This document shows positions 1-33,128 of a stretch of DNA of 64,000 bases, piece by piece. The notes under the pieces are model-generated. The model made no database searches. It was given only the letters and a program-made list of their open reading frames with translations, and was not told where the DNA came from. Location of the stretch: the NCBI GenBank assembly GCA_964547345.1, contig CAZJMX010000007.1:35791-99790 (forward strand), written 5' to 3'. Each line of letters starts with the position of its first letter. Position 1 is the first letter of the stretch. A program made the translations under genes and the position numbers. This DNA comes from an uncultured Smithella sp. Its GTDB lineage: Bacteria; Desulfobacterota; Syntrophia; Syntrophales; Smithellaceae.

Positions 1-99
1 GAAATACCCCGTAGCGATACACCAGGAAAACGTCCGGAAAAACCACAGCCCCAGCTTACGGGAAAGATAAACGCCTATTTTGTATGTAAGTTTTTTCAT
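1..99 (-). CDS. N-terminal 33 codons of an unidentified protein that continues off the left edge
   Basis: Reverse-strand ATG at 99..97, then an open frame MKKLTYKIGVYLSRKLGLWFFRTFSWCIATGYF running to position 1. It is too short for the ORF track. Function is not assignable; an acyltransferase would fit the neighbourhood but that is a guess. Confidence 0.35.
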   Translation of the reverse strand, partial: MKKLTYKIGVYLSRKLGLWFFRTFSWCIATGYF

Positions 100-207
100 T
101 AATTCATATCTTCATTTCTTTGAGCCCCCCGGAGGGGATCTTCATAATGGTTTTTTCTTACCCGTCACTTATTGCCTGTGGCCCATTACCCCTTACGCCT
201 CATGATT

Positions 208-1926
208 TCAAGCCCCGGCATACTTCCCCAAAGCCTTCAGTTTCGCGATTTCCTCTTTTTCCAGTGCATTGAAGGCTACTTTGCCGACCAGGGTTTTGGG
301 CAGATCGCTTCTGAACTCGATGGAACGGGGACAACTCCACTTGATCAGATGTTCACGGCAATAGTCAATCAGCTCTTTTTCAGTGTCGGGGCTTGCGTCC
401 GCAGGATCCTTCAGGACAACAAACGCCTTCACTGTCTGCACCTGCGCTTCATCGGGAACGCCGATCACACAGACTTCCTGCACTTTCGGATGTCGGTAGA
501 GCAGATCTTCCACCTGCGCAGGATAGACATTCATGCCGGATGATTTAATCATGCGCTTTTGCCGCAATTTGAAATAAAAAAATCCGTCTTCATCCATTGT
601 GCCGATGTCGCCTGTGTGCAGCCAGATGCGGCCATCTGCATGTCGTTTTAAAGTATTCTCGGTTTCCTCGGGATGGTCAAGATAACCCAGCATCACGGCA
701 GGACCGGACACACAGATTTCACCCTCTTCGCCCAACGGCGCTTCATCGGTTGTTTCCAGACGGACAATCTTGGCCAGCATATCCGGGAAAGGTACGCCGA
801 TGCTGCCTTCCCGGTAATAGCCCAGAGGCGTGGCCATAATGGCCGTGACGGCTTCCGTGAGTCCGTATCCTTCCAGAAGCTGCACGTTGCCGCCCTGCGT
901 CTTGACCATACTTTCAAATCGCTCTTTGACGGGCCGGGGCAAGGAATCCGCACCGGAAAAGGTGGCCCGCAGGCAGGCCAGATCGGCTTTGCGCATTTTG
1001 GGATTACGGGAAAGCGCGTCATACAGGGTGGGCACGCCAACCACAAAAGAAGGTTTGCGCGAACGAATCAGATCGGCAACTGTCTCCGGCGTAAAGATCG
1101 GCACCAGGATGCTTTTGCCTCCCCCCATGAAGCAGGCATTGATGCAAACACCCAAACCGAAACCATGAAAGATCGGCAAAATCGCCAGAATAGAATCCGC
1201 ACCGGAGAGCTTTCCCCATTCCGATACCTGTTTGCCTTCACTGATAAAATTCATATTGGAGAGCATGATACCTTTGGGTACGCCGGTTGTGCCGCCGCTG
1301 TAAAGAATGACAGCCAGATCGTCGGTGCTCATTTGCGACCGGGGTGCTTTGGCGTATTTGCCTTTCATGAGATCAGCCCACCACCTGACCATTTCGTCAG
1401 GCGGCACTTTCGGAATCAGGCGACCTTTGGTTAAATTAAACCCAATGCGTTTGAAGAGATTCAGGTAATCCGGAATCCGCGCCAGGATGAGCGTTTCTAA
1501 AGGCGTTATGCTTTGAACTTCCTTGAATTTGGCATAGAAAGCGTCGAGGGTCAGGGCAAAGCGGCTTTTAGCCACATTGAGGTAAAATTCAATTTCTTTG
1601 GCCGTGGAGAGGGGATGGATCATGCTGGCGACGGCGCCCAGTTTGTTTACGGCATAAAAGCAGATAATTCCTTGTGGCGATGTGGGCATGGCAATGGTGA
1701 TTCTCTCCCCTTTTTTAAGACCCAGCGATGCCAGAGCATCGGCACACTGACCAATCTCGGATATAAACTTGCGATAGGTCGATGTGTAGCCGAGAAAATC
1801 ATAGGCGATGGAATCGGGATTGTCCCGCGCCGTTTGAGCAAGCGCTTCATACAGGGTGACCCGAGGATAATCGATGGTATGCGGAACATGCTGATAAAAT
1901 TTCAACCAGGGTTTGAGCTCATACAT
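208..1926 (-). CDS. AMP-dependent acyl-CoA synthetase/ligase (FadD-like)
   Basis: 572-aa ORF with adenylate-forming motifs YSGGTTGVPKG, EGYGLTEA, HTGDIG, KRMIKSSGMNVYP and LPKTLVGKV. Confidence 0.9.
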   Translation of the reverse strand: MYELKPWLKFYQHVPHTIDYPRVTLYEALAQTARDNPDSIAYDFLGYTSTYRKFISEIGQCADALASLGLKKGERITIAMPTSPQGIICFYAVNKLGAVASMIHPLSTAKEIEFYLNVAKSRFALTLDAFYAKFKEVQSITPLETLILARIPDYLNLFKRIGFNLTKGRLIPKVPPDEMVRWWADLMKGKYAKAPRSQMSTDDLAVILYSGGTTGVPKGIMLSNMNFISEGKQVSEWGKLSGADSILAILPIFHGFGLGVCINACFMGGGKSILVPIFTPETVADLIRSRKPSFVVGVPTLYDALSRNPKMRKADLACLRATFSGADSLPRPVKERFESMVKTQGGNVQLLEGYGLTEAVTAIMATPLGYYREGSIGVPFPDMLAKIVRLETTDEAPLGEEGEICVSGPAVMLGYLDHPEETENTLKRHADGRIWLHTGDIGTMDEDGFFYFKLRQKRMIKSSGMNVYPAQVEDLLYRHPKVQEVCVIGVPDEAQVQTVKAFVVLKDPADASPDTEKELIDYCREHLIKWSCPRSIEFRSDLPKTLVGKVAFNALEKEEIAKLKALGKYAGA

Positions 1927-1993: not shown

Positions 1994-4900
1994 TCACGAT
2001 TTTTTTCCCACAAACCACTTTTCTTCCACACCCGGGGTGGGTGAAGTATGAACCCGGACACCAAAACCGGCGGCGGCCATGAAACCGGCGATTTCTTTTT
2101 CCTGACGGAAGCGCTGCGGGATTTTTGTGAATTTCAGATGCGCTGCTTCGATCCAGCGTTTCCAGGGAACTTTTCTGCTCGATGGAACGGTAGCACGGAT
2201 CAATAACGTACCGCCGGATTCCAGCTTCTCATAGATGCGATGCAAAACCAATTGTAATTCTTCATCATTGACATAATGGAGCATGTCCAGCATGGTGACA
2301 TAATCAACGCTGCCATCGACGTGAGGCAGGTCGGGGGCCAGGCCTCCCTGCACATGGCCGCGCTCACCGATCACCCGGTTGGCAATCAATACCCTTTCTT
2401 CATCCGGTTCCAGGCCAAACACTTGTGCCTGCGGATAGATTTCCAGAAGCCAGGTGGCCGGGATGCCATAACCGCAGCCGATATCAATGATCCGGCGGGG
2501 ATTTTTCACATACTGATTCAGCTCGCGAAACATCGGATCAATAAGAATTTTAAGCCGGGCAAAAATACGCGGATAAGCGGGCAAGTGCCTGTAGCGTAAA
2601 ATCGTCCGACGCAGGTGCTCTTTGGAGCCAATCGCCAATGCGCCTGTTGGATATTGAACCTGCGCAAATATTTTTTCCATTAAATACGGCAAAATAAAAT
2701 AGGCCCCGATTAACGCATAGCCGATGCCTAAAAATGAGACTATCCCGATGCTCTTCAAAAGCGCATGGTCGGCAAAAATCAGAACGCCAAAACCGATCAG
2801 GGTGGTGCAAGCCGACAAAAACATCGAAAACTTGATGGTGTGCATGGCCGGACGTTTTTCGTCAAAGTTACGCTGATAATGGCAGATATAGTAAAGCGCA
2901 TAATCATCTCCCATGCCCATAATGATAATCCACAGCATGATGCCGGGAATATCCAGCGGATGGCCGATAAGCTTCATTGTGCCCAGCGTGGCGCAAAGCG
3001 CGAAAACAACCGGCGCCAGCGCCGCAAGCGACAAACGCCAGTCCAGAAAATGTAAAAAGGTGATGCAAACAAGCCCCAGGCTGATGATCAGGGCAATTTC
3101 CAGAAACATGTTTTTCAGAAAATCGCTAAGCCTTTTGTTGAACAAATCCGCATCGAAGAGTTTGACGAACCCCATGGTTGAAACGCTGTTATATAAATCA
3201 TCCGCGCTATAATTTCCCCCGGCGGTAAGCAGGCTCAATTGCGTAAACCCTCCCGGACTTTTGGCAATGCCCAGCATTTCAAAATATTTCGCAGGTATTG
3301 CAAAGACGCCGGGATCTCTTTGATCAACGATTTTCCAGAAGGGTGCAAAAGCACCGGGCGCAAAGCCGTTTGCAAGCGCCGCCGCATCAAGGTCCCGTTT
3401 CAGGGCCGCCACACGATCTTGATTCCAGAAACTGCGCCAGGCATCAAAATTGCGTTGAGCCGATGGTTGAGATGGGAATAAAACGGATGGCAGAAATACC
3501 GGAGCAAGTTTTTCTTTCTGCACATCAGTTGCCAGAAGCGTCATCAATTGTTCATTTTTTTTCTGCAATTCCTCCATACTCGACGCTTCCAGAAGAACGT
3601 AACTTTTTCCGGAAAGATTGCCCCAGGTCTCCTGCAATTTTTTTTCGGCGCTTATGGTTTCCTTGCTCATGGAATTCATCGCCTGCAAATCGACATTGAA
3701 GACCGGCTTGGCAAACATCAGCATGATCAAACCAAAGATAATCGCGGCGACCAGCTTCCATTTTGCCGGGGCGGCGATTTTGATCACCGCATTAAACAGG
3801 AAACGGTTGGGAAGGCGTTTGGAAGGCGGCATCGATGGAAATACTTTGGGAAACACAAAATGGACGAACAACAGGGCAAAAGCAACACCCAGCGCGGAAA
3901 AGACGCCGATTTCGGCCAGGATTTTAAAATCGCTGATCAAAAGCAGCAAAAATGCGCCAACGGTGGTCAGCGTCGCCATGAGCTCCGCCGACCAAACCTC
4001 GCGCGCCACCTGTTTGCCGTAAGTGGTGTAAGGCTGATCCAGAAAAAGCAGATACGCCATTCCCATATCCACTGTAAAGGCCATAATGGCGCCGCCGAAA
4101 CCAACAGACAGTATCGACATGGATTTGAATAAAAAAGAACAGACAAACAAGGCGGCAATGGCTCCCACCGTGGAGGGCAAAAGCGCCAGAAGACCAATCA
4201 GGGGACGGGGAAAAGCGAAGAGAATCAGAAGAATGATGCACACGGTCGTAAACGTTATGGCCAACTGCACATCGCGTTTGGCGATGGTTTCGTTATCCAG
4301 CGCGGCGCGGTAGGCGCCAACGGGCGTCAGGATGTACTGATCCTTTAGATCCTCATGGGCTTTTAGTTCCTGCCGGCAATCCTCGAGAAGTTTTTCAATT
4401 TGGATGGCTCTTGCAGAGTCTGTTCCCGATCCGGCAATGCGGGCAATAATCAGCGCATGACGGCCATCCGCGGAAAGCAGTTGGCCTGAATAAAACTGAG
4501 CTTGCTTGGCCGGAAGCAGCGCGGACATTTGCCCTAGAATGACGCCGGAAAACCCCAACGGGTCTTTGGACATCATCTCGGCCCGGCCGATGCCTTCGAG
4601 TTGTTCCAGGTTCTGCCGGTTTCGCGCCATCGCTTCCCGTATTTTTGCAGGCGTGAGAAGCGGCTTGATTTTTTGTTCCAGATCGGATGCGCTCAAAAGC
4701 GAGGGCAAATTACTGTTCACATGTAAGATCAGCTCCGGAAAAGAATTCGCTTCATCACTGATGCCGACTTTAGTAAACAAACCGCTCTTGTTTAATTTGT
4801 CCGTGAGAATAGACGCCGCTTTGACCAGCGAACCCTGATCACCGGATGCTTGTTCCAGATCAATAAAAATTTTATCCTGGATGGGTAAATGACTGATCAC

Positions 4901-5059
4901 CTGACGGGCGGAATTCAACACCGGATCGCTGTGCGGCAGCGATTCCAGAATATCGGTTTCAATTTTTAAAGAATGGGTCTCCCAGAAAAAAAGCAGACCG
5001 ACCATGACAGCGGTAACAATAACAATCGACCATTTGACGGGGTATTTTCGCGGCGGCAT
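1994..5059 (-). CDS. MMPL/RND-like predicted lipid exporter fused to a C-terminal class I SAM-dependent methyltransferase
   Basis: 1021-aa ORF. The N-terminal ~780 aa has two multi-TM bundles separated by large soluble loops, the ApeM-like 'predicted exporter' architecture. The C-terminal ~230 aa has SAM motif I (IIDIGCGYG), then FGLEPD and DYVTMLDMLHY. Confidence 0.85.
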   Translation of the reverse strand: MPPRKYPVKWSIVIVTAVMVGLLFFWETHSLKIETDILESLPHSDPVLNSARQVISHLPIQDKIFIDLEQASGDQGSLVKAASILTDKLNKSGLFTKVGISDEANSFPELILHVNSNLPSLLSASDLEQKIKPLLTPAKIREAMARNRQNLEQLEGIGRAEMMSKDPLGFSGVILGQMSALLPAKQAQFYSGQLLSADGRHALIIARIAGSGTDSARAIQIEKLLEDCRQELKAHEDLKDQYILTPVGAYRAALDNETIAKRDVQLAITFTTVCIILLILFAFPRPLIGLLALLPSTVGAIAALFVCSFLFKSMSILSVGFGGAIMAFTVDMGMAYLLFLDQPYTTYGKQVAREVWSAELMATLTTVGAFLLLLISDFKILAEIGVFSALGVAFALLFVHFVFPKVFPSMPPSKRLPNRFLFNAVIKIAAPAKWKLVAAIIFGLIMLMFAKPVFNVDLQAMNSMSKETISAEKKLQETWGNLSGKSYVLLEASSMEELQKKNEQLMTLLATDVQKEKLAPVFLPSVLFPSQPSAQRNFDAWRSFWNQDRVAALKRDLDAAALANGFAPGAFAPFWKIVDQRDPGVFAIPAKYFEMLGIAKSPGGFTQLSLLTAGGNYSADDLYNSVSTMGFVKLFDADLFNKRLSDFLKNMFLEIALIISLGLVCITFLHFLDWRLSLAALAPVVFALCATLGTMKLIGHPLDIPGIMLWIIIMGMGDDYALYYICHYQRNFDEKRPAMHTIKFSMFLSACTTLIGFGVLIFADHALLKSIGIVSFLGIGYALIGAYFILPYLMEKIFAQVQYPTGALAIGSKEHLRRTILRYRHLPAYPRIFARLKILIDPMFRELNQYVKNPRRIIDIGCGYGIPATWLLEIYPQAQVFGLEPDEERVLIANRVIGERGHVQGGLAPDLPHVDGSVDYVTMLDMLHYVNDEELQLVLHRIYEKLESGGTLLIRATVPSSRKVPWKRWIEAAHLKFTKIPQRFRQEKEIAGFMAAAGFGVRVHTSPTPGVEEKWFVGKKS

Positions 5060-5422
5060 GCAAACCTTTAAATTAACACCATTATTTTTCCATTTTTGCC
5101 TTGGTTTTTAAACCACATTTCCCGGACACTGGCAAGGGAAAAACCCGGCAAAAAAACTAATTTAATACACTAATAATATCAGCAGATTACATATCAATAG
5201 TTTTTTCAAAAAATGTTAAAGTTTTTTTCCTAAAATGTCGATTTAGAAATCGAACGAGTTTTCTGGGGTGTTTGTAAATAACTCAGGATGGCGGAATCGA
5301 ATAATGAAAAAACTACAGCGGCCTTTAGAAACCATTTTCCGTTTGAGGCCGAAAGAAATTGTAACATGATTCCAGCCGTATCGACGAAAACGGCACAACC
5401 GGAACTCGATATACCCTCCGTG

Positions 5423-5447
5423 GCCCCCTCCCGGGGGGTATTTTTTT
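5423..5447 (+). terminator. Terminator-like GC hairpin plus T-tract in the leader region upstream of the response-regulator operon
   Basis: GCCCCC-TCCCG-GGGGG followed by TATTTTTTT. It lies about 43 nt upstream of the 5490 start. There is no upstream plus-strand gene for it to terminate. Confidence 0.35.
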
Positions 5448-5489
5448 CCATCATCCACATACCATTGTTTTCATATAGGCGAGTATGAC

Positions 5490-7124
5490 GTGACGAAACG
5501 GGAAGAAAAACCTGAAATCAACCTGAAGATGAAGAAAGTTCTGGTGGTCGATGATTTTTTCAACTTTCGTCTGACCCTCAAGAATATGTTGCGTTCATTC
5601 GGCATTATGTATATCGACGACGCGGCCAACGGCGAAGAGGCCGTCAGGAAACTGTCGGTGCGCCGGTTTGACATCATCTTATGTGATTACAATCTCGGCC
5701 CCGGAAAATCCGGTCAGCAGGTTCTCGAGGAAGGCAAATTCCGCGGATATATCGGCTATGCCAGTATCTTTATTATGATCACGGCGGAAAACACGACGGA
5801 AATGATCATGGGCGCAATGGAATATCAGCCGGACGCCTACCTGATGAAGCCTTTCGCCAAGGAAGTCCTGGAAAAACGGATCAAGAGCATCGCCGTCAAA
5901 AAACTCAACATCCGGGACATCGAAAAAGCCATCACCGACAACGACTACGATCATGCCGTCCGCATTTGTGATGAACTGCTTGCGGAAAACCCCGGCAACT
6001 TATCTGAAATCATGAAGCTCAAAGGCGAAACCCTTCTTAAAAAAGGGGACTGCAAGCTGGCCGCGGAATTTTACGACAAAATTCTACAAATGGGCAATGT
6101 GGCTTGGGCACAACTAGGCCGGGGCCGGGTGGATTTTCTTTTGGGCAACTACGAGCGCGCCAAAGATGTTTTCGAACGCGTCATTGCGCAAAATGACAAA
6201 ATCATGCCTGCCTACGATTATCTGGCCAAGACATTATTGAAAATAGGCAACCCGCAAGAAGCCCAGGATGTCCTGGTCAAAGCCGTCGCCATCTCACCCC
6301 GGGCCCTCCTGCGACACAAAGATCTGGGTAATCTGGCCTACAGCAATGAAGACTTCAAGACCGCTGAGACATCTTTCAAAGCCGCGGTAGATCAGGGCAA
6401 AAATTCCTGTTTTAAAAATCCGTCGGACTACACCCATCTGGCCAAAACACTGGTGCATTGCGACGCGCCCCAGGAAGGCCTCAAGGTGCTGGGCCAAGCG
6501 CTTCGCGAATTTCCGGACAACAGCGATACGCGTCTTCATTTAAGCGTTGCCGAAAGCTATGTTTACACTAAAATGAATAAAACCGCCGAGGCCAAGCGGG
6601 CGCTGGCGGATGCGCAGAAGTTCGCGGCGGATCTCCCCTCCGAAATTCCCCATGATCTGGCGCTTGATCTGGCCCAAGCCTATCTCATGACAGGCAACAC
6701 GGCAAAAGGCACGGCCATCATAAAAAACATTGTAGGCAGCTATCACGACGACGAGGAAATTCTGGATCATATCCGCGCCGTCTTCAAGGAAACCGGGATG
6801 TCGGAACAGGGCGACGCGCTGATTGAAAGCACGCGCGATGAAATCCTCCGGCTCAACAACGACGGCGTCAAACTGGCGCGCGACGGCAAGATTGAAGAAG
6901 CCATCCTCTATTTTGATAAAGCGGCCGGACATTTGCCGGAAAACAAGATCATTAACGCCAACGCAGCGCATGTGCTGATGTTGTCCATGAAACAGAAGGG
7001 CGCAAACCCGGAAGGCTTAGCCAAAACCAAAACATATCTTGACAGAGTGCGGAGAATTGATGAAAGTTATGCCGATCTCAGCACTTTATTATCCATGTAT
7101 CGAGAACTGGCCGCCAAGGATTGA
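5490..7124 (+). CDS. Response regulator: receiver domain fused to a long TPR-repeat output region
   Basis: REC signature KVLVVDD ... IILCDYNLGPGKSG ... IMITAE ... LMKPF. The remainder is TPR-like helical repeats. The ORF-track start is GTG at 5490; the alternative is ATG at 5529. Confidence 0.85.
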   Translation: MTKREEKPEINLKMKKVLVVDDFFNFRLTLKNMLRSFGIMYIDDAANGEEAVRKLSVRRFDIILCDYNLGPGKSGQQVLEEGKFRGYIGYASIFIMITAENTTEMIMGAMEYQPDAYLMKPFAKEVLEKRIKSIAVKKLNIRDIEKAITDNDYDHAVRICDELLAENPGNLSEIMKLKGETLLKKGDCKLAAEFYDKILQMGNVAWAQLGRGRVDFLLGNYERAKDVFERVIAQNDKIMPAYDYLAKTLLKIGNPQEAQDVLVKAVAISPRALLRHKDLGNLAYSNEDFKTAETSFKAAVDQGKNSCFKNPSDYTHLAKTLVHCDAPQEGLKVLGQALREFPDNSDTRLHLSVAESYVYTKMNKTAEAKRALADAQKFAADLPSEIPHDLALDLAQAYLMTGNTAKGTAIIKNIVGSYHDDEEILDHIRAVFKETGMSEQGDALIESTRDEILRLNNDGVKLARDGKIEEAILYFDKAAGHLPENKIINANAAHVLMLSMKQKGANPEGLAKTKTYLDRVRRIDESYADLSTLLSMYRELAAKD

Positions 7125-7126
7125 AA

Positions 7127-7819
7127 ATGGAAGACAAAATGAACTTCTCCGACATTCTGGCCTCGACGCTTCACGACACCAAAAATTCCCTGGGGCTCCT
7201 GTTTAACAATCTGGAGGACATTATCGCCAGTTGCCGCGAACAAAACTGCGCGAGGCACGCTGATTTTTACGCACTGCAATATGAAATTCAACGCCTCAAT
7301 CACAGCCTCATCCGGCTGCTTTCGCTTTATAAGGCCGAAAAATCGCAGTTGGCCGCCAATATCGACTATCACGCTATCGACGATTTTCTGGAAGAAGTCG
7401 CCGTGGCGCATCAAAGGCTGCTTGCCTCACGCGGCATCCAGCTTGTAACGGAATGCGACAGCGGACTGATCTGGGCGTTCGACCGAAATCTGATCGGAGG
7501 CGTTCTTGACAACATTATCAACAATGCTTTCCGATACGCGCTCTCCACGGTCAAAATCCGCGCGTTTGCTGAAAACGGCTATCTCGTCGCGCAGATTGAA
7601 GACGACGGCAAGGGCTACCCGCCCGCCATGCTGATCAACGAAAACAAGCAGCCCCGATTCAAACAGGAAATCGATTTCAAAACAGGCAGCACGGGCCTGG
7701 GGCTTTATTTCGCTCTGATGGTCGCCGCGATGCATGTCAATCATGAAAAAGAAGGGTTTATCTCCATCATCAACGGCGGGGATTTGGGCGGAGGCGTCTT
7801 CTCCATTTACTTACCCTGA
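7127..7819 (+). CDS. Soluble histidine kinase (H-box plus HATPase_c, no obvious sensor domain)
   Basis: H-box STLHDTKNSL, N-box NIINNAFRYA, G1 EDDGKGYP, G2 GSTGLGLYFA. The start lies next to or overlaps the upstream stop (TTG 7121 or ATG 7127, against TGA 7122..7124). Confidence 0.8.
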   Translation: MEDKMNFSDILASTLHDTKNSLGLLFNNLEDIIASCREQNCARHADFYALQYEIQRLNHSLIRLLSLYKAEKSQLAANIDYHAIDDFLEEVAVAHQRLLASRGIQLVTECDSGLIWAFDRNLIGGVLDNIINNAFRYALSTVKIRAFAENGYLVAQIEDDGKGYPPAMLINENKQPRFKQEIDFKTGSTGLGLYFALMVAAMHVNHEKEGFISIINGGDLGGGVFSIYLP

Positions 7820-7835
7820 GGCAAGGAACAAACAC

Positions 7836-10911: not shown

Positions 10912-10939
10912 AAAACCATAAAGGAGCAAAATACAATAT

Positions 10940-24753: not shown

Positions 24754-24775
24754 GAATCGGTAGCGAGGTTTTAAT

Positions 24776-26299: not shown

Positions 26300-27444
26300 G
26301 CATGGAGATGGTTCCTTACAGCGACGAGCACCGCATTTTCCGCCGGTCTTTCCGGAAGTTTCTGGAAAGAGAAATTATCCCGCACGTGGATCAGTGGGAG
26401 GAAGACGGCATGGTCCCGCGCTGGGCCTGGAAGAAACTTGGCGATGAGGGATTTTTGTGCACGTCGGCGCCGCCCGAATACGGCGGACAGGGCGCGGATT
26501 TTCTGTATAGCGCGATCCTGATCGAAGAAATGGCCAAGGCGAACTTTTACGGGCTTTCCGCGCGTCTGCACAGCGACGTGGTCGTGCCCTATATTGTCCA
26601 GCTTGCAACAGAAGAACAAAAGAAAAAATATCTGCCCGGCTGCATCAGCGGCGATATCCTGACGGCGATTGCCATGAGCGAACCCCAGGCCGGAAGCGAT
26701 CTGGCGGGCATTCTGACCACCGCCACGGAGGATGGCGACGCGTTTGTGCTCAATGGACAGAAGACCTTCATCTCCAACGGGATCCATTGCGATCTGGTCA
26801 TTGTGGCGGCAAAGGATTCGCGGGAAATAAATCCCCATACCGCCGTGGATTTATTTTTAGTGGAAGCAGGAACGCCCGGTTTTGAGAAGGGTAAAAAACT
26901 CAACAAAATCGGTTGGCGCTCTCAGGACACGGCTGAGCTCTTTTTTACAGACTGCCGGATTCCGAAAAAAAACCGCCTGGGGCCCAAGGGCACGGGTTTC
27001 AAAAACCTGATGACGAATCTTCAGCAGGAGCGCCTCATCTGTACGATTGGCGCGCAGACGGCGGCGGAATTCATCCTCGACGAAACAATTCGCTATTGCA
27101 AACAGCGGCAAGTGTTTGGTAAGTCACTGGCGGGTTTTCAAAATACGCAGTTTGTGGTGGCCGAAATGGCGTCGGAAGTAAAAATCGGCCGAACGTTTGT
27201 GGATCAATTGATTGTAGAACACTGGCAAAAGCATTCGGTCGCCACGGATGTTTCCATGGCGAAGTTTTGGGTGACGGAAATGGCCTGGCGCGTGGCCGAC
27301 CGTGCGCTGCAGCTTTTCGGCGGCTACGGCTATTGTGAGGAGTATCCGATCGCACGCGCCTGGCGTGACATCCGGATTACACGCATACTGGCCGGGTCCA
27401 ATGAAATCATGAAACAGATCATTGCCAAAGCCGTTCTGAAATAG
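26296..27444 (+). CDS. Acyl-CoA dehydrogenase
   Basis: AMSEPQAGSD motif. The C-terminal RILAGSNEIM lacks the MCAD-type Glu, whereas LQQERL has a Glu at the IVD/LCAD-type catalytic position (hand alignment). The start is GTG 26296 or ATG 26302. Confidence 0.85.
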   Translation: MSMEMVPYSDEHRIFRRSFRKFLEREIIPHVDQWEEDGMVPRWAWKKLGDEGFLCTSAPPEYGGQGADFLYSAILIEEMAKANFYGLSARLHSDVVVPYIVQLATEEQKKKYLPGCISGDILTAIAMSEPQAGSDLAGILTTATEDGDAFVLNGQKTFISNGIHCDLVIVAAKDSREINPHTAVDLFLVEAGTPGFEKGKKLNKIGWRSQDTAELFFTDCRIPKKNRLGPKGTGFKNLMTNLQQERLICTIGAQTAAEFILDETIRYCKQRQVFGKSLAGFQNTQFVVAEMASEVKIGRTFVDQLIVEHWQKHSVATDVSMAKFWVTEMAWRVADRALQLFGGYGYCEEYPIARAWRDIRITRILAGSNEIMKQIIAKAVLK

Positions 27445-27466
27445 AAGAAACGGGGAAAGAGGAATT

Positions 27467-28696
27467 ATGAAATTTTTGCTGATTTATCCCAAATGGGAAA
27501 AACTCGACCGTCAGACGCGATTCACCTTGCCGCCGCACGGGCCGGTGGTGATGGCTGCCGCCCTGCCTTCTGATGTGGAGGTGACGTTCATCGATGAAAA
27601 TGTCGAACCGATTGACTTTGACGCATCTGTTGATTTTGTCGGTGTCTCGATGATGCTGACCGCACAGGTCAGACGGGGCTGGGAGATCGCCGATGTGTTT
27701 CGCGCCCGGGGTGTCAAGGTCATGTGCGGCGGAATTGCCACCATGCTGCACGCCGAGGAAAGCGGAGAACATGCAGACGCGGTATTTCTGGGTGAAGCCG
27801 AAGGCCGGATGGAACAGGTCTTTGCCGATTTCAAATCGGGCCATCTGCAAAAAGTATACAACTACATGCAGAATTTCCCGCCGATTGAAAGCGTAGGACC
27901 GGCACGGCGCAGCATTTTAAAGCGCGAGATGTATAACTATCGCGGCGTGCAGATGGTCGATCTGGTGCATGCCTCCCGCGGCTGCCGCTTCAACTGCTAT
28001 CCGTGCGCTGTGAGATTCCTGGGCGGCCGGAGCTTCCGTCCGCGTCCCTATGACAAGGTGATCGAAGAATTGGCAGGCATTGAAAATAACCGCCTGTTCA
28101 TGGTGGACAATTCGCTTGCGCAGGATAAGGACTGGGAAATGGGATTGTTCAAAGAGATGATTCCGCTCAAAAAGAAATGGTGCTCTCACCCGATTGAAGA
28201 CGATGATCAGGTGCTGGATCTGGCGGCGCAGGCGGGCGCCTGGTTTGTCTATCAGGCTATCTTTGATTCGTCCGACTTCATCCGCGACCGCGTGAAGCGC
28301 TATCACGATCACGGCATCAAGGTGGAAGGCAGTATTCTGCTGGGGCTGGATTATCACACGGAAGATTATATCAAACGGTGGATGGATTTCCTTTTGGAGA
28401 TCGAGCTGGATATGGCGGAATTCACCATTCTGACGCCTTTCCGGCACACGCGCACCTTTGACGATCTGCATAACGCGGGGCGAATTTTTTCCTATGACTG
28501 GAACGACTACACCTGCGGCAAAGTCGTCTTTCAACCGAAGATGATGTCGCCTGCAAAACTCCAGGAAATGTATTCCTACTGCTGGGATCGATTCTACGAG
28601 GAAGAGCCGCAGAACTATAAAATGTTCAAGATGCTTAAAAATGTCATGGAGAAGGAAAAGGCGGACGGTACGTTCAAAGAACGCGTGCGCCGCTGA
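27467..28696 (+). CDS. B12-binding-domain radical SAM enzyme (class B-like)
   Basis: N-terminal Rossmann-like B12-binding-domain pattern (KFLLIYP...VGVSMM...GVKVMCGG), then the radical SAM cluster motif GCRFNCYPC. Confidence 0.8.
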   Translation: MKFLLIYPKWEKLDRQTRFTLPPHGPVVMAAALPSDVEVTFIDENVEPIDFDASVDFVGVSMMLTAQVRRGWEIADVFRARGVKVMCGGIATMLHAEESGEHADAVFLGEAEGRMEQVFADFKSGHLQKVYNYMQNFPPIESVGPARRSILKREMYNYRGVQMVDLVHASRGCRFNCYPCAVRFLGGRSFRPRPYDKVIEELAGIENNRLFMVDNSLAQDKDWEMGLFKEMIPLKKKWCSHPIEDDDQVLDLAAQAGAWFVYQAIFDSSDFIRDRVKRYHDHGIKVEGSILLGLDYHTEDYIKRWMDFLLEIELDMAEFTILTPFRHTRTFDDLHNAGRIFSYDWNDYTCGKVVFQPKMMSPAKLQEMYSYCWDRFYEEEPQNYKMFKMLKNVMEKEKADGTFKERVRR

Positions 28697-28712
28697 AAGG
28701 AGCAATACCACG

Positions 28713-30266
28713 ATGAGGAAAATTGGCAAAAAGGCCGCTTTGGTCATTGACGGCGGTTCTGTCAGTTTTGACGACCTGATTGCCGTCTCCAAAGACGGCA
28801 TGAAAGTGACGATCAGCAAAAAGCCCGCCTTTGTGAAACGCATGGAGGCCACGCGGAAAATACTGATGGCATCCCTGGAAAAAGGCGTTGCGGTTTACGG
28901 CGTGAATACCGGCTACGGCAAATCCTGCGGGAACCGGATCAGCATGAAAGACGCGATGAGAAACGGCGTCAATATTTTTCGCTTTCACGGGTGCGGCACA
29001 GGCGAGCCCATCGGCATTGAAGAGACGCGGGCAGCCATGCTGACCCGCATCATCTGCCTGGCGCGAGGCTATTCCGGCGTTTCCATCGGCCTTTTGCAGC
29101 AGATGGCTGATTTTTTAAACGCGGGCCTCACGCCCGTGGTGCCCGCAGAAGGCTCAGTGGGTGCCTCCGGCGATCTGACGCCCATGTCGTATATCGGCGC
29201 GACGCTCATGGGTGAACGCGACGTCTTTTATGAAGACGACATTGTGCCTGCCGCCGTCGCCCTGAAAAAAGCCGGCCTGAAACCCTACACCTACCTGCCG
29301 AAAGAACCGCTGTCGATGGTGAACGGCACGACGACCATGACCGGCATTGCCGCTCTGACTCTCGAGCGGGCAAAGCGCGTGCTGGATGCCGCGATTGTCG
29401 CCACGGCGCTGTCCGTTCATGCGATGAAAGGCAACGCCCATCATTATCATCCGGTGATTTCCGAGGCCAAGCCCTTCCCCGGCCAGACCTATGTCGCCAA
29501 GAAAATCTCTCACCTGCTATTGTCGAGGGTCTCGGCGCGGCACCTGGAAGACGAAACGCTCGAAACATTGCAGGACCCCTACTCGCTGCGCTGTGCGCCG
29601 CAAGTGCTGGGTGTATTGTACGACGCGCTCGTCTGGATAGAAAAATGGGTCGAGACGGAAGCCAACTCATCCAACGACAATCCGATATTTGATCCCGCCA
29701 CAGGCCAGGTGCTGATGGGCGGCAATTTCTACGGGGGTCATATCGCCTTTGCCATGGACGGCCTCAAGGCCGCGCTTGCGTCGGCTGCCGACATGTGCGA
29801 CAGGCAAATGATGCTCCTGGTCAACCCCAATCTCAACCGGGGGCTGCCGGGCGATCTGGTGCGGTTAAACGGCGCTCAGACCGGCCTGCATCATGGCTTC
29901 AAGGCCATGTCGATTTCGTCGTCGGCGCTCGCCGCCGAGGCGCTCAAAAACACCATGCCCGCGGCGTCGTTTTCCCGTTCGACCGAATCGCACAATCAGG
30001 ACAAAGTCAGCATGGGAACCATCGCCGCCCGGGACGCGGAACGGGTGTGCACGCTCACTGAGCGCGTCATGGCCATTCATCTGCTCGCGGCGGCGCAGGC
30101 CTGCGACATCCGGCAAAATATCCGCGTCCGGCCGCTTCTGGCCAAGATCCTCCAGAATATCCGGACCGTGAGCGATGGGGTGGTCGAAGACCGGCCGCTG
30201 GATGAAGACATTGAAAGAATGTGTGTTGTGATCCGTTACACCGACTTTTTCAGGATGAAACCATGA
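28713..30266 (+). CDS. Aromatic amino-acid ammonia-lyase (HAL/TAL/PAL family, MIO cofactor)
   Basis: MIO-forming triad in GSVGASGDLTPMSY. ATG 28713 is preceded by AAAGGAG. Family-typical YGVNTGYG and NDNP. Confidence 0.85.
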   Translation: MRKIGKKAALVIDGGSVSFDDLIAVSKDGMKVTISKKPAFVKRMEATRKILMASLEKGVAVYGVNTGYGKSCGNRISMKDAMRNGVNIFRFHGCGTGEPIGIEETRAAMLTRIICLARGYSGVSIGLLQQMADFLNAGLTPVVPAEGSVGASGDLTPMSYIGATLMGERDVFYEDDIVPAAVALKKAGLKPYTYLPKEPLSMVNGTTTMTGIAALTLERAKRVLDAAIVATALSVHAMKGNAHHYHPVISEAKPFPGQTYVAKKISHLLLSRVSARHLEDETLETLQDPYSLRCAPQVLGVLYDALVWIEKWVETEANSSNDNPIFDPATGQVLMGGNFYGGHIAFAMDGLKAALASAADMCDRQMMLLVNPNLNRGLPGDLVRLNGAQTGLHHGFKAMSISSSALAAEALKNTMPAASFSRSTESHNQDKVSMGTIAARDAERVCTLTERVMAIHLLAAAQACDIRQNIRVRPLLAKILQNIRTVSDGVVEDRPLDEDIERMCVVIRYTDFFRMKP

Positions 30267-30682
30267 GCTTTGAGAAAAAAAGTTTTGAAGTCAAACTCCG
30301 TGTTCCGTTTTTTGATCTCGATCCGATGCAAATCGTCTGGCACGGCAACTATCTCAATTATTTTGAAGTCGCCCGCGCCGCGTTGTTTGAAAACCAGGGT
30401 GTCGATCTGTATTCCTACTTTGACCGGGAAAAAATTATCTTCCCCATCATCCGGACATCTACCAAACACATTTTTCCGCTCAAACATCGCGACGAGGTCA
30501 TCATCAAGGCTACGCTCGTGGATGCCCATATCAAGCTGGTGGTGGATTTTGAAATCCGCAAGGCCGCCGACAACACGGTCTGCGCGCGCGGGCGCACCGA
30601 ACAGGTGGCGGTGAAGACGCCGGAGATGGAAACGCTCTTCAGTCTGCCCACAGACATTCAGAAACTCCTGGGGGTCGTATAA
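30263..30682 (+). CDS. 4-hydroxybenzoyl-CoA thioesterase-family hotdog thioesterase (YbgC/ApeK-like)
   Basis: 139 aa with the FFDLDPMQIVWHGNYLNYFE motif. ATGA overlap with the lyase stop. Confidence 0.8.
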   Translation: MSFEKKSFEVKLRVPFFDLDPMQIVWHGNYLNYFEVARAALFENQGVDLYSYFDREKIIFPIIRTSTKHIFPLKHRDEVIIKATLVDAHIKLVVDFEIRKAADNTVCARGRTEQVAVKTPEMETLFSLPTDIQKLLGVV

Positions 30683-32391
30683 TGGACGATTTACTCAAAA
30701 AATCTTTTGTGGCCGGTGTGGAACGGGTTGCCGCGTGGGCGGATCTGCTCGACGCCATTAATGTGTTTCCCATCGCCGACGGAGACACGGGGCGGAATCT
30801 CTCCATCAGCCTCTCCCCGCTTCGCAATACTGGTGAGCAGCAGGACAAAATCGTCCGCCAGTTACTGCTTGCCGCACGCGGCAATTCCGGCAATATCGCA
30901 TCGCGCTTCTTTTCAGCGTTTTATCAGGCTTCGTCGCCCGCCGATCTGAAGGCGGCGGTGCAGGAAGGAAACGCCAGAGCCTGGAGCGCCGTTTCCGATC
31001 CGCGTCTGGGAACGATGCTTTCCGTATTCGACGCGCTCGAAGAAATCCTTTGCCGCAACGATTATAGGCCCGGCAAAAACAGCGCCGACGAGATCATTGC
31101 GCACCTGGAGCAGGCCGTGCGCGAGACGCATGATCTGCTGCCGAAGCTCCAAGAGGCAGGCGTTGTGGATGCAGGGGCTTTGGGCATGTACATCTTCTTC
31201 GAGGGCTTCTTCTATACCCTGGCCGGGCATGACAATCATTATCGGCCCGTGACGGATGTATTTCCAGACCGTCTGCGGATATCTGCTGCGTTTAAGGAAG
31301 TGTCGGAAACCGGTTACTGCGTGGATTTTGTAGTAAGAGCCGATGCCGGGTCGCCCGAAGCCCTGACAAAAATCGCCGGCTCCCAGGACAGCGCCATCGT
31401 CATTCAGGACGGCGATCTCTACAAGATTCATCTGCACACGGACGACAAGGACAAAATCAAATCCCAGATGGCAAAGCTAGGCTCGGTGATGAATTGGGAG
31501 GACGATAATCTTTCCGCCCAGATCAACGAATTCATGAAGACGCACACCGATTCGCCTCTGCATATCATGACGGATGCGGCAGGCTCGCTCACCCGCAACG
31601 ACGCCAAAAGATATGGTTTTACGCTGCTCAACAGCTATCTCAATGTCGGTGAAAAGTCGCTTCCTGAAACCTGTTTCCATCCGGAAGAACTCTACAGCGC
31701 CATGAGAGCGGGTGTGAAAGTGTCCACGTCGCAGTCCTCCGTTTTTGAAAGGCATCAGTTTTATGCCGCGGCTTTGGCGCGTTTTGAAAAAGTTTTGTAT
31801 TTGTGCGTCGGTTCTGTTTATACCGGCAATTACCAGATCGTCACCGATTGGAAAAAAGAACATGATCCGGACAATCGTCTTCTGGTCATCGATACCGGTG
31901 CGGCCTCCGGAAGACTGGGAACCATGGTGCTGGCGGTGGTGCGGAATCTGGCACAAACCCGTGACATGGACACAACCTATGCGTTTGCAAAAAAAGCGGT
32001 GGAAACCTGTGAGGAGTATGTGTTTCTGGAAAAGCTCGAATATCTGGCGGCAGGCGGCAGGTTATCCAAAACGAGCGCCTTCTTCGGCGACATGCTGAAA
32101 ATGAAACCGGTGATATCGCCACTGCCGGAAGGCGCCAAAAAAGTCGGCGTCGTGCGCAACCGCAAAGATCAGATCAAAATGGCGCTTGCAAAACTCTCGG
32201 CGGCGCTGGGCCCGGATGAAAACGCCCTCATCATGCTGGAATATTCAGACAATATCGATCAAGTGACGGAATTCGGCAAAGACGTGAAAAAACTCTATCC
32301 GAAGGCTGAGATTATTTTGCAGCCCCTGTCAGTGACGTCCGGCGCGCATTTTGGGCCGGGGACATGGGGCGTGGCTTTTTTGGCCCTATAG
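30682..32391 (+). CDS. Fusion of a FakA-type Dak2 (DhaL-like) domain with a DegV (FakB-like fatty-acid-binding) domain
   Basis: The N-terminus has FPIADGDTGRNLS and ARGNSGNI (Dak2/FakA pattern). The C-terminal half has HIMTDAAGSL, TSQSS, TGNYQ and VIDTGAASG (DegV pattern). TAATG overlap with the thioesterase. Confidence 0.7.
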   Translation: MDDLLKKSFVAGVERVAAWADLLDAINVFPIADGDTGRNLSISLSPLRNTGEQQDKIVRQLLLAARGNSGNIASRFFSAFYQASSPADLKAAVQEGNARAWSAVSDPRLGTMLSVFDALEEILCRNDYRPGKNSADEIIAHLEQAVRETHDLLPKLQEAGVVDAGALGMYIFFEGFFYTLAGHDNHYRPVTDVFPDRLRISAAFKEVSETGYCVDFVVRADAGSPEALTKIAGSQDSAIVIQDGDLYKIHLHTDDKDKIKSQMAKLGSVMNWEDDNLSAQINEFMKTHTDSPLHIMTDAAGSLTRNDAKRYGFTLLNSYLNVGEKSLPETCFHPEELYSAMRAGVKVSTSQSSVFERHQFYAAALARFEKVLYLCVGSVYTGNYQIVTDWKKEHDPDNRLLVIDTGAASGRLGTMVLAVVRNLAQTRDMDTTYAFAKKAVETCEEYVFLEKLEYLAAGGRLSKTSAFFGDMLKMKPVISPLPEGAKKVGVVRNRKDQIKMALAKLSAALGPDENALIMLEYSDNIDQVTEFGKDVKKLYPKAEIILQPLSVTSGAHFGPGTWGVAFLAL

Positions 32392-32405
32392 AGAGTGAAT
32401 GGAAC

Positions 32406-33128
32406 ATGACTATCGAAAACAGCAAAAACCGAATCGCCTTTATTATTCCGGTCTACAACCACGCGGCGACGGTCGCTCAGGTTGTGCGGCAGGCGCAGGC
32501 GCTGGGGTATCCAGTTATTGTCGTGGATGACGGCTCGACCGACGACACGCCACTTAGTCTTGCGGAAATCAAAGGCATTACTTTGCTGCGCCATGAAAAA
32601 AATCAGGGCAAGGGTGCGGCGATTCTGACCGGCTTCATGGCGGCCTGCAATGAAGCTGATTTCGCAATCACGCTGGATGCGGATGGACAGCACTACCCGG
32701 AAGACGCCCTGAAGTTGATCCATGCGATTCCCCAGGGGAAGCGACCGATTATCGTCGGCGCACGAGAAGGGATGACGGCGCAACTGGGCGCTCATATTCC
32801 CTGGACGAGCCGCTTCGGCCGGAAATTTTCCAACTTCTGGGTCTGGATCTCCGGCGGTCCCGCCCTGTCGGATTCGCAAAGCGGCATGCGGCTCTACCCG
32901 CTGCCGGAGGCGCTCAGCCTTCCCACACGGGCGCGTCGTTTTCAGTTCGAAGTCGAAATCCTGGTCAAGGCTAAACGAAAAGGCATTCCCGTCATCGAAA
33001 CGCCGGTGAGGGTTTTTTATCAGGCAGGCGAAGAACGCATCTCTCACTTCCGCCCGTTTGTCGATTTTCTACGCAACACCAAAACCTTCACGCGTTTGAT
33101 TTTCAGCCGCATTTTTTCTCACCACTGA
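32406..33128 (+). CDS. Family 2 glycosyltransferase (ApeJ-like)
   Basis: IIPVYNH, VVDDGSTDDT and LDADGQH (DxD). Confidence 0.85.
   Translation: MTIENSKNRIAFIIPVYNHAATVAQVVRQAQALGYPVIVVDDGSTDDTPLSLAEIKGITLLRHEKNQGKGAAILTGFMAACNEADFAITLDADGQHYPEDALKLIHAIPQGKRPIIVGAREGMTAQLGAHIPWTSRFGRKFSNFWVWISGGPALSDSQSGMRLYPLPEALSLPTRARRFQFEVEILVKAKRKGIPVIETPVRVFYQAGEERISHFRPFVDFLRNTKTFTRLIFSRIFSHH

Follow-up and report, generated by a model that had tools for sequence, protein, structure and literature searches.

The DNA analysed in this study, hereafter called the window, is a stretch of 64,000 nt from a contig of an uncultured Smithella sp. (family Smithellaceae, Desulfobacterota). A cluster of 25 genes at positions 208-33128 encodes discrete ketosynthases (KSs), a ketoreductase (KR), a dehydratase (DH) and an acyl carrier protein (ACP), accompanied by an aromatic ammonia-lyase, ligases and an export set. 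From comparison of the sequences we estimate, with a probability of about 0.7, that the cluster is the Smithellaceae version of an aryl polyene (APE)-type type II polyketide synthase/fatty acid synthase (PKS/FAS) cluster, whose product would be a specialised lipid delivered to the outer membrane.

Gene content and likeness to aryl polyene and flexirubin clusters

Genes were identified from a six-frame listing of open reading frames (ORFs) together with Pfam and NCBIfam models and their score cutoffs. Twenty-six genes in the first part of the window (1-36 kb) were scanned with Pfam, and four starts (acyl-CoA dehydrogenase, 26302; lyase, 28713; thioesterase, 30263; glycosyltransferase, 32406) were refined by gene calls on exact-match contigs. 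All of the enzyme classes that an initial annotation of this DNA had listed were recovered by these means among the 25 genes, in the places given for them there. The genes are as follows.

208-1926, minus strand: FadD-like long-chain acyl-CoA ligase, 572 amino acids (aa) (Pfam AMP-binding and AMP-binding_C)
1994-5059, minus strand: ApeM-like MMPL/RND (HpnN/HAE3-like) exporter fused to an S-adenosylmethionine (SAM)-dependent methyltransferase, 1021 aa
5490-7124, plus strand: REC-TPR protein, first gene of a three-gene regulatory module (Pfam)
7121-7819, plus strand: HATPase_c histidine-kinase-like protein, 232 aa (Pfam/NCBIfam)
7734-8648, plus strand: TPR protein, 304 aa (Pfam)
8918-10315, minus strand: ApeH-like adenylating enzyme, 465 aa
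10492-10911, plus strand: FabZ/ApeP-like hot-dog DH, 139 aa, IPHRKP motif
10940-11674, plus strand: ApeQ/FlxB-like KR
11695-12306, plus strand: LolA-like periplasmic lipid carrier with a signal peptide (Pfam LolA)
12303-12998, plus strand: lipoprotein with lipobox LAAC, in the ApeN position
12995-14500, plus strand: CrtI/CrtD-family enzyme with the flavin adenine dinucleotide (FAD) amine-oxidase fold (Pfam, NCBIfam)
14673-14939, plus strand: ACP with the DSI serine motif (PP-binding)
14949-16187, plus strand: KS1, ApeR-type FabB-like ketosynthase
16195-16998, plus strand: ApeD-like PlsC-family acyltransferase, HX4D motif
17026-17583, plus strand: nitroreductase-family flavoprotein (Pfam)
17666-22138, minus strand: dCache-6xPAS-HisKA-HATPase-REC hybrid kinase, 1490 aa (Pfam, NCBIfam)
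22266-23519, plus strand: KS2, active ketosynthase
23491-24753, plus strand: KS3, dead ketosynthase, 420 aa
24776-26299, plus strand: acyl/aryl-CoA ligase, 507 aa (Pfam, NCBIfam)
26302-27444, plus strand: acyl-CoA dehydrogenase (ACAD), AcrC- or butyryl-CoA-dehydrogenase-like
27467-28696, plus strand: B12-binding radical SAM enzyme, CX3CX2C intact
28713-30266, plus strand: 4-methylideneimidazole-5-one (MIO) aromatic amino acid ammonia-lyase, 517 aa, ASG triad (Lyase_aromatic E 4e-156)
30263-30682, plus strand: ApeK-like 4HBT thioesterase
30682-32391, plus strand: Dak2-FakA_M-DegV single-chain protein (FakAB)
32406-33128, plus strand: ApeJ-like family 2 glycosyltransferase (GT2), short form, DxD motif

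In both plus-strand blocks (10492-17583 and 22266-33128), each gene either overlaps the next or is separated from it by at most 28 bases, with the sole exception of a gap of 172 bases before the ACP gene. This tight spacing argues for operon-like packing rather than chance. A single hot-dog DH and a single ACP were present among the genes identified in the cluster, and Pfam found no match to an enoyl-reductase family among the genes scanned in the 33 kb. We also considered a housekeeping FAS but discarded this reading, since the scanned genes contained no FabD, FabH, FabI or Acc domains and the KSs fall outside the housekeeping clade (see below).

The APE cluster of Escherichia coli CFT073 (L088), together with FabF, FabB and FabG of strain K-12, served as the reference for BLASTP comparisons, in which ten window proteins proved homologous to E. 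coli Ape proteins. The ApeH-like enzyme aligned with ApeH over its full length (25% identity over 461 aligned residues, E 3e-33). The PlsC-type acyltransferase matched ApeD (32% identity, E 7e-20), the thioesterase ApeK (32% identity, E 6e-20), the exporter ApeM (21% identity over 591 aa, E 9e-10) and the ACP ApeF (E 2e-7), and the GT2 matched the N-terminal 235 aa of ApeJ (35% identity, E 3e-34). The KR was 43% identical to ApeQ, which is equal to its identity to FabG. The DH had been described as ApeI/P-like; the ApeP half of this description stands (E 6e-8), whereas no match to ApeI was obtained. The DH also matched 6QSR_B (E 0.009), and FabZ models gave 34 bits. With the ApeR match of KS1 described below, the homology to ApeH, P, Q, R, D, J, K and M bears out the view of the initial annotation that this is an APE-type lipid cluster of discrete enzymes with an export and anchoring set.

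The remaining likenesses were weak. The LolA-like protein matched ApeL at E 0.003 only, in addition to Pfam LolA. The methyltransferase, a class I SAM domain at residues ~845-1005 of the exporter, matched ApeB at E 0.035; the ApeB-like enzyme of the initial annotation is thus present as a domain of the exporter and not as a separate gene. ApeA, ApeC, ApeG, ApeI and ApeN of the CFT073 set had no BLASTP match from the window proteins. The lipoprotein said to be ApeN-like is in place: its gene always follows that for LolA in the loci whose gene order was compared, and its size is similar to that of ApeN. However, the likeness in sequence is faint, as a profile of 11 sequences aligned with E. coli ApeN at an hhalign probability of 16.5% (E 0.0015). 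Three of the 11 lipoprotein orthologues touched DUF3261 weakly (best E 0.014), and the window protein had no Pfam match.

In its architecture, the window resembles the APE clusters of E. coli CFT073, Xenorhabdus doucetiae, Acinetobacter baumannii and Vibrio in having discrete ACP, KR and DH proteins, an ApeR-type FabB-like KS, a further KS with an inactive partner, and no enoyl reductase. An ApeH-type loader, a PlsC-type acyltransferase, a GT2, a 4HBT thioesterase and a SAM methyltransferase are likewise shared, as are a LolA-like carrier, a lipoprotein and an MMPL exporter. Unlike these clusters, the window has no ApeA, ApeG or ApeI and only one ACP in place of ApeE and ApeF, and its inactive KS is full-length and related to the anammox protein amxFabFmut, whereas APE clusters have the truncated ApeC. 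Furthermore, the methyltransferase is fused to the exporter, the GT2 lacks the C-terminal half of ApeJ, and an MIO lyase, a B12-radical SAM enzyme, a CrtI-like flavoenzyme and a FakAB-like protein are added, to which this lineage adds a CoA ligase and an ACAD.

The flexirubin clusters of Bacteroidota share with the window an MIO lyase for a cinnamate-type starter and an APE-like type II system. The initial annotation had drawn this comparison from the lyase and a 4CL-like ligase. A lyase and aryl-acid-type ligases are indeed present, and the LolA-like protein passed the flexirubin model NF053544 LolA2_flexi (130 bits against a cutoff of 125). The KR gave 299.6 bits with the FlxB model NF053542 (cutoff 340). 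Differences from flexirubin clusters are that both the lyase and the KR stay below the FlxA and FlxB cutoffs, that the lyase has a Phe-His switch, and that the host belongs to another phylum. We know of no flexirubin cluster with the radical SAM, CrtI-like and FakAB extras. A DarB-type FabH/ACP_syn_III domain was not found by Pfam in the 26 genes of 1-36 kb, and no dedicated DarA model was run.

The lyase scored about equally against histidine, tyrosine and phenylalanine ammonia-lyases (HAL, TAL and PAL) and aminomutases, both in NCBIfam models and among PDB sequences, and stayed below the cutoffs of the HutH, BagA and FlxA models (FlxA NF053541, 319 bits against 700). In an alignment, its switch pair was Phe-His where Pseudomonas HAL has Ser-His; the corresponding selectivity pairs are His-Leu for TAL and Phe-Leu for PAL. 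The motif FHGCGTG (near residues 88-94) was kept in 41 of 44 lyase orthologues, and one orthologue had Tyr-His. Further on, the window protein reads NQD, the form of PAL and TAL, where HAL has QED. We consider, with low certainty, that the lyase may be PAL-like. Because Phe, not His, occupies the Tyr/Phe switch, cinnamate would be a likelier product than coumarate. The ApeH-like enzyme is a likely loader of the aryl starter acid, judging from its full-length homology.

Conserved and variable genes in related genomes

When one genome per GTDB species was scanned for the radical SAM enzyme, a relative was present in at least 529 of these genomes. The best 80 (70-88% identity) were labelled Smithellaceae, Syntrophales, Desulfobacterales, Desulfococcaceae or Desulfosarcinaceae; the exceptions were two Spirochaetota metagenome-assembled genomes (MAGs) and one Pseudomonadota MAG. 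More than 100 relatives were 80-91% identical to the window enzyme, and those with names belonged to Smithellaceae, Smithella or Syntrophaceae. The gene set was syntenic in many related genomes, and this synteny recurred across dozens of independent genomes, which favours a functional cluster. A string of DH, KR, LolA, lipoprotein, radical SAM, (lyase), thioesterase, FakAB, GT2 and MMPL genes was kept in Syntrophus-like and Desulfobacterales genomes.

Co-occurrence was counted by tblastn of all window proteins against 39 loci of at least 20 kb, a gene being scored when it lay within 10 kb of the radical SAM gene; this flank limit lowers the counts of distant genes. The Dak2-DegV gene was present in 32 of the 39 loci, followed by those for the thioesterase (30/39), the GT2 (29/39), the KS2-type KS (28/39) and the MIO lyase (23/39). 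The DH (20/39), KR, LolA and lipoprotein genes were each found in 20-21 loci, the exporter in 15/39, the ApeH-like enzyme in 13/39 and the 507-aa ligase in 12/39. Far fewer loci had the ACAD (5/39), the large PAS kinase (3/39) or the nitroreductase (1/39). The B12-radical SAM enzyme, the Dak2-DegV protein, the CrtI-like enzyme, the MIO lyase and the MMPL-methyltransferase fusion are the conserved signature of the family. The initial annotation had presented the additional enzymes as one unusual set, but this set falls apart: the radical SAM, CrtI-like and Dak2-DegV proteins belong to the conserved core, the nitroreductase and the large PAS kinase are local insertions, and the ACAD and the 507-aa ligase are accessory.

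The compact version of the cluster, in L010, shows the basic arrangement. Within 21 kb, 17 of the window genes are contiguous and in the same order: the ApeH-like gene (minus strand), then DH, KR, LolA, lipoprotein, CrtI-like, ACP, KS1, PlsC, KS2 and KS3, followed by radical SAM, lyase, thioesterase, FakAB, GT2 and the MMPL-methyltransferase gene. The window differs from this in three respects, namely that a nitroreductase and a kinase are inserted after PlsC, that a ligase and an ACAD are inserted after KS3, and that the exporter, the FadD-like ligase and the regulatory trio are moved to the opposite side. L001, a genome of 4.78 Mb, has the same genes as the window in the same order except for the nitroreductase and the large kinase, with the REC-TPR/HATPase/TPR trio and the MMPL-methyltransferase gene downstream of the GT2 gene and a DnaJ-domain gene.

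The radical SAM enzyme has a B12-binding domain (Pfam), and its CX3CX2C motif was invariant in 15 relatives. When 1.84 billion representatives clustered at 50% identity were searched, the full-length relatives listed had identities of 70% and 51% and then at most 40%, a drop that marks the enzyme as a well-delimited orthogroup. No named NCBIfam model was reached (best 44 bits), and no solved relative was found in PDB. With the TIGR04072 'lipid biosynthesis' model it scored 43 bits against a cutoff of 360 and is thus of a different type. Both types occur in a single cluster in L003, which holds a window-type enzyme and a true TIGR04072 enzyme (386 bits against 360). L003 is Desulforhopalus sp. 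52FAK, a cultured organism with a complete genome (AP044854.1, 681295-702572). Its cluster further includes a CrtI-like gene, an ApeO-ApeC fusion KS, an ACP, an ApeP-like DH, a KR, LolA, a lipoprotein, an ApeH-like ligase, Dak2-DegV, a GT2, an LpxL-like acyltransferase and a PEMT-like gene. L007, a distant member of the family, has two ACPs, both ApeI and ApeP, a lyase and further radical SAM enzymes. In Elusimicrobia bacterium GWA2_69_24 (L005/L006), a window-type enzyme with 44% identity lies between an LpxL-like acyltransferase gene and an ACP-like gene, near genes for a radical SAM-SPASM/hydrolase fusion, a GT28-like glycosyltransferase and aminotransferases. The contexts in L003, L007 and Elusimicrobia tie the orthogroup to acyl lipids, and the enzyme is presumed to modify the chain.

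Also in L007, positions 2080-8938 encode a PS-DH domain fused to a phosphopantetheinyl-transferase, a second FabF-like KS pair in which both members have Cys-His-His, and two small radical SAM proteins with no B12 domain.

For the CrtI-like enzyme, no useful relative was found in a PDB sequence search; its family suggests a putative chain desaturase, saturase or isomerase. The Dak2-DegV protein matched Pfam Dak2 (1e-18), FakA-like_M (4e-11) and DegV (3e-42). It passed the TIGR00762 DegV model (162 bits against 99.7), reached 99 bits with the FakA equivalog model (cutoff 975) and stayed far below the FakB1 cutoff. It has in common with FakA and FakB of Firmicutes the Dak2 kinase domain, the FakA middle domain and the fatty-acid-binding DegV (FakB) domain. 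However, all three are in one chain in the window, with DegV replacing the C-terminal domain by which FakA docks FakB, and the gene sits behind a thioesterase gene in a biosynthetic cluster of a Gram-negative lineage. In nearly all of the loci that carry it and whose gene order was compared, the Dak2-DegV gene directly follows the thioesterase gene, and from this fixed place we infer that the freed acid may be captured and phosphorylated. No mention of a Dak2-DegV fusion in a biosynthetic cluster was found in the literature searched. The exporter-methyltransferase fusion was full-length in relatives down to 42% identity (L010, L056, L064, L074 and L078). A fusion of transporter and methyltransferase is unusual in a lipid cluster.

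The initial annotation had described two sensory modules embedded in the cluster. One of them, the REC-TPR/HATPase/TPR trio, does travel with the cluster in close relatives, adjoining it in L001 and L002 as well (73-77% identity), and it probably regulates the cluster. The other, the large PAS kinase, was found in only 3/39 loci and, from these comparisons, appears to be an insertion that splits the cluster rather than a conserved member. In L001 and L010, KS2 directly follows PlsC with neither kinase nor nitroreductase between them. L002, a second contig, has both, with a kinase of 1211 aa as against 1490 aa in the window. The patchy occurrence of kinase and nitroreductase and the differing length of the kinase suggest that the PlsC-KS2 gap is a variable hotspot of sensory insertion, and the nitroreductase is probably a lineage-specific accessory gene, not a core member. 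Besides the window, the kinase splits the cluster in only some Smithellaceae, namely L002 and L019.

The position of a six-PAS kinase in the middle of the cluster raises the alternative that the lyase and ligase make a p-coumaroyl chromophore for a PAS domain of the kinase resembling photoactive yellow protein (PYP), the lipid operon being unrelated. The most specific model for the ApeH-like enzyme, the 4-coumarate-CoA ligase model TIGR02372, indeed represents the PYP-activating ligase family, but the score of 102 bits is far below the cutoff of 335, and no PYP model was among the best 25 NCBIfam matches of the kinase. Moreover, the lyase and the ApeH-like enzyme are far more widespread than the kinase (23/39 and 13/39 against 3/39), the cluster is intact without the kinase in L001 and L010, and the residue at the Tyr-selecting position of the lyase is Phe and not His. 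We regard a chromophore role as extremely improbable, and the co-occurrence data largely rule it out.

The 507-aa ligase and the ACAD appear, from their distribution, to be an accessory pair. The best models for the ACAD were the acryloyl-CoA reductase AcrC and the glutaryl-CoA dehydrogenase of Desulfobacterota, both below cutoff. Smithellaceae are syntrophic degraders of fatty acids and alkanes, and these two genes, the lyase and the FadD-like ligase might instead constitute a phenylpropanoid or fatty-acid degradation route (or a reductive, Stickland-like one) beside an APE-like operon, with which both the ACAD models and the accessory status of ligase (12/39) and ACAD (5/39) would agree. However, the ligase and ACAD genes sit inside one operon, flanked by KS3 and the radical SAM gene, and the successive intergenic distances there are 22, -4 and 22 bases. 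The ligase, absent from the compact L010, travels with the KS2/KS3 pair in L013, L023 and L071. Pfam found no hydratase, thiolase or electron-transferring flavoprotein genes nearby, and it is the thioesterase and FakAB, rather than the ACAD, with which the lyase is conserved. A separate catabolic route therefore seems to us quite improbable.

Ketosynthases and the relationship to ladderane-type clusters

A first neighbour-joining (NJ) tree of 15 KS sequences left the position of KS2 unstable (106/200), and a tree of 41 sequences with 300 bootstrap replicates was therefore built. Its alignment consisted of the window KSs and their orthologues, E. coli FabF, FabB, ApeO and ApeR, 14 housekeeping FabFs, the ApeO-ApeC fusions of L003 and L007, and the anammox pair with three related metagenome pairs. 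These are distance trees, in which dead paralogues attract each other; the several members in each dead-KS clade lower this risk, which is still present.

KS1 has a Cys-His-His active site and grouped with ApeR in 300/300 replicates and with ApeR and FabB in 292/300. It was 38% identical to E. coli ApeR in BLASTP (282 bits, against 221 bits to FabB), and in a PDB sequence search its scores with 4EWG (318 bits) and 7F27 (AbApeR, 306 bits), both named ApeR after PMC8358021, exceeded that with FabB (220). The ApeR-like KS of the initial annotation is thereby confirmed.

KS2 also has Cys-His-His. Its clade joined the ApeO clade in 235/300 replicates and housekeeping FabF in 9/300, and the housekeeping FabFs were monophyletic with KS2 excluded in 300/300; thus the KSs are not nested within housekeeping FabF/FabB. 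The claim that one KS is ApeO-like received moderate support from this tree, whereas in raw identity KS2 is closer to FabF (29% to ApeO against 39% to EcFabF in BLASTP), and the PRK09185 model scored below FabF models. With moderate support, we place KS2 as an active KS in a clade of its own that lies outside housekeeping FabF and has ApeO as its sister. With 6KXD_A, the structure of the ishigamide enzymes Iga11/Iga12, it scored 276 bits, no better than ordinary FabFs.

KS3 had been called an ApeC-like dead KS. It is dead, having Ala, Ala and Glu at the active-site positions with the Lys kept. However, at 420 aa it is full length with both thiolase halves (Pfam), it has no BLAST match to ApeC, and its clade grouped with that of the anammox dead FabF, amxFabFmut (9S5H_C and relatives), in 299/300 replicates. 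Window KS3 appears to be the closest non-anammox relative of amxFabFmut found in this analysis. The KS2 and KS3 genes overlap by 29 bases, and KS3 is presumed to be the chain-length-factor (CLF) partner of KS2, in a role like that of ApeC. Chains B and C of the heterodimer 9S5H were among the best PDB matches of KS2 and KS3. These chains appear to be the anammox amxFabF2/amxFabFmut pair, because they carry the substitutions reported for Kuste3606 and chain B shares 91% identity with the KS encoded on L091, an anammox contig. The anammox proteins have been described as a KS/chain-length-factor-like pair (bioRxiv 10.64898/2026.05.19.726425). Orthology of the window pair with the anammox pair was considered and rejected, since only KS3 groups with its anammox counterpart (299/300), KS2 grouping with amxFabF2 in 16/300.

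A full-length inactive CLF beside an active KS, together with KR, DH and polyene chains, is also a feature of highly reducing type II PKSs such as the ishigamide system (Iga11/Iga12). The products of these systems are amides or side chains, not envelope lipids, and we know of no genes for lipid anchoring or export in them.

In anammox bacteria, Cluster I (Kuste3603-3608) comprises an enzyme resembling phytoene dehydrogenase (PDH), a B12-radical SAM enzyme, an ACP, a FabZ-like DH and the KS pair (bioRxiv 10.64898/2026.05.19.726425; PMC10139942). Contig L091 is laid out like Cluster I, with an ACP-size ORF, a FabZ-size ORF, FabF2, FabFmut and a PDH-like gene. The window is similar in combining an active KS beside a dead full-length FabF homologue with a PDH-like flavoenzyme, a B12-binding radical SAM enzyme, a dedicated ACP and a FabZ-like DH. 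It differs in that its radical SAM enzyme is of another orthogroup and KS2 is not amxFabF2-like, and Cluster I as published has no lyase, LolA/MMPL export set, GT2 or FakAB. In tblastn against L091, the window CrtI-like protein was 21.5% identical to the PDH-like gene (E 2e-23), and the window ACP and DH had no match at E 1e-3 or below. The link to anammox Cluster I, the suspected source of ladderane lipids, seems to be real for the dead KS and the gene inventory, but not to amount to cluster-wide orthology.

Such clusters have been noticed before, and those of Desulfotalea and Kuenenia are the closest precedent in print. The unusual FAS clusters of Kuenenia were reported in 2009 to be syntenic with clusters of Desulfotalea, Geobacter and Pelobacter, the shared genes being those for SAM enzymes, a phytoene-dehydrogenase-like protein, a 'phenylacetyl-CoA ligase', a glycosyltransferase and a membrane protein (PMC2649909). 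The description of the Desulfotalea cluster fits the window family. Surveys of biosynthetic gene clusters in Desulfobacterota have also reported antiSMASH 'ladderane' clusters with no assigned role (PMC9902471). The family has thus been known since 2009 under a 'ladderane-like' label, and it is widespread and uncharacterised.

In a different reading, the window encodes a 'ladderane-like' pathway to membrane fatty acids, of the type proposed for Kuenenia and Desulfotalea. KS and dead KS, PDH-like and radical SAM enzymes would make a polyunsaturated, methyl-branched or cyclised chain that is built into phospholipids by way of the fatty acid kinase and PlsC; an aryl starter would be incidental or absent. 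The grouping of KS3 with the anammox protein, the inventory shared with Cluster I, the synteny reported in 2009 and the presence of both radical SAM types in L003 all speak for it. So does the phospholipid-type nature of FakAB, PlsC and FadD, as well as the fact that the MIO lyase was missing near the radical SAM gene in 16/39 loci. However, the window radical SAM enzyme is not of the TIGR04072 type, KS2 does not resemble amxFabF2, neither the ACP nor the DH shows detectable specific similarity to its anammox counterpart in L091, and the PDH-like enzymes share only 21.5% identity. The conserved lyase signature (41/44), the ApeH-like loader and the ApeR-type KS favour an APE-style exported lipid, as do LolA, the lipoprotein, the MMPL pump and the GT2, over a bulk membrane fatty acid, and no enoyl reductase is encoded. 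On balance we think a ladderane-like membrane pathway unlikely, and prefer the APE-type exported lipid.

Proposed product and edges of the cluster

As an APE-type pathway, the cluster might work as follows. The MIO lyase would deaminate Phe (less likely Tyr) to cinnamate, which the ApeH-like enzyme would attach to the only ACP. A second loading route could be provided in this lineage by the 507-aa CoA ligase, and the ACAD might remove or introduce a C2-C3 double bond in the CoA ester. KS1 and a KS2/KS3 heterodimer would extend the chain with malonyl units, and the KR and the single DH would leave an enoyl unit in each round. As no enoyl reductase is encoded, the chain would stay conjugated unless the CrtI-like flavoenzyme alters it. 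The radical SAM enzyme and the methyltransferase domain may modify the chain or the ring, C-methylation and O/C-methylation being the most plausible reactions. The 4HBT thioesterase would free the acid, and the Dak2-DegV protein would bind it and phosphorylate it to an acyl phosphate. The PlsC-type enzyme, or the cellular PlsY/PlsX route, could then fix the acyl group to a glycerol-based anchor. The GT2 would add a sugar, and LolA, the lipoprotein and the MMPL pump would carry the lipid to the outer membrane.

It is plausible that the product is undescribed. No characterised near-identical cluster or linked compound was found in the literature searched, which agrees with the initial annotation, and nothing relevant was found there for aryl polyenes with DegV or a fatty acid kinase, or for Smithella with arylpolyene. 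Tentatively, the product might be an undescribed envelope lipid occurring throughout the Desulfobacterota, phenylpropanoid-primed, built by an ApeR-type KS and an ApeO-like KS with an amxFabFmut-like CLF, remodelled by radical SAM and PDH-like enzymes, re-activated as an acyl phosphate, anchored and exported; we would regard so detailed a picture as doubtful.

Several points weigh against the interpretation as an APE-type exported lipid. Since the window lacks ApeC, ApeI, ApeA, ApeG and a second ACP, what is known biochemically from Xenorhabdus and E. coli may not carry over. The affinity of KS2 for ApeO comes from the NJ tree (78% support), and its raw score favours FabF. The Phe-His pair of the lyase has no known precedent and fits neither the HAL nor the TAL nor the PAL signature, which makes the substrate uncertain. 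Moreover, the lyase was absent within 10 kb of the radical SAM gene in 16/39 loci, so that an aryl starter may not be universal in the family. The CrtI-like enzyme, the ACAD or the nitroreductase could reduce the chain and give a saturated product. We know of no precedent for an acyl-phosphate intermediate in APE-type pathways. Finally, the chemical steps are all inferred, and no product has been reported for members of the family.

APE-type clusters are among the commonest biosynthetic clusters of Gram-negative bacteria, but few of their products are known, all from Proteobacteria or Bacteroidota. Hundreds of Desulfobacterota species, dominant in anaerobic digesters, sediments and groundwater, carry the present family. 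What is new in it is a different chain-length factor, a family-specific B12-radical SAM enzyme, a single-chain FakAB-like protein and the exporter-methyltransferase fusion. Recent work has called the 'ladderane' cluster of anammox bacteria unique to them, and the relative of its dead KS described here links the two groups. The chemistry of KS/CLF, PDH-like and radical SAM enzymes is what has blocked progress on ladderane biosynthesis; if the relationship is true, the family could serve, in Desulforhopalus sp. 52FAK, as a culturable model for this trio. The place of the FakAB-like protein behind the thioesterase, as read from the genes, suggests an acyl-phosphate hand-over that would be new to polyketide-lipid pathways.

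On its left side, the cluster is not delimited, as the window starts only 207 bases before the FadD-like gene. The FadD-like protein scored about 400 bits with NCBIfam long-chain-fatty-acid--CoA ligase models, below their cutoffs. A copy 84% identical to it follows the MMPL-methyltransferase gene in L008 and L009. Because it adjoins the exporter gene both here and in these two loci, the FadD-like ligase is probably a peripheral member of the cluster.

The right end of the cluster is the GT2 gene. Beyond it, positions 33131-39072 (minus strand) hold genes for a type III restriction enzyme (ResIII and endonuclease domain), a KilA-N protein and an N6/N4 DNA methylase, with a GC content of 0.45-0.47 as against 0.52-0.56 in the cluster. 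This segment separates the GT2 gene from a DnaJ-domain gene (39602-40381), and the two are direct neighbours in L001 and L002. For this reason, it looks like an inserted type III restriction-modification island that marks the right edge of the cluster. We take this island, like the nitroreductase and the large PAS kinase, to have been inserted later.

Further from the cluster, a protein with CHAT, TCAD7 and DUF7363 domains (51230-53506) has a ternary-complex-associated architecture and is possibly related to defence. The window also encodes a GGDEF protein (44555-46135), a YgiQ-like Radical_SAM_N2 enzyme (55031-56779) and a Mur ligase (60995-62407).

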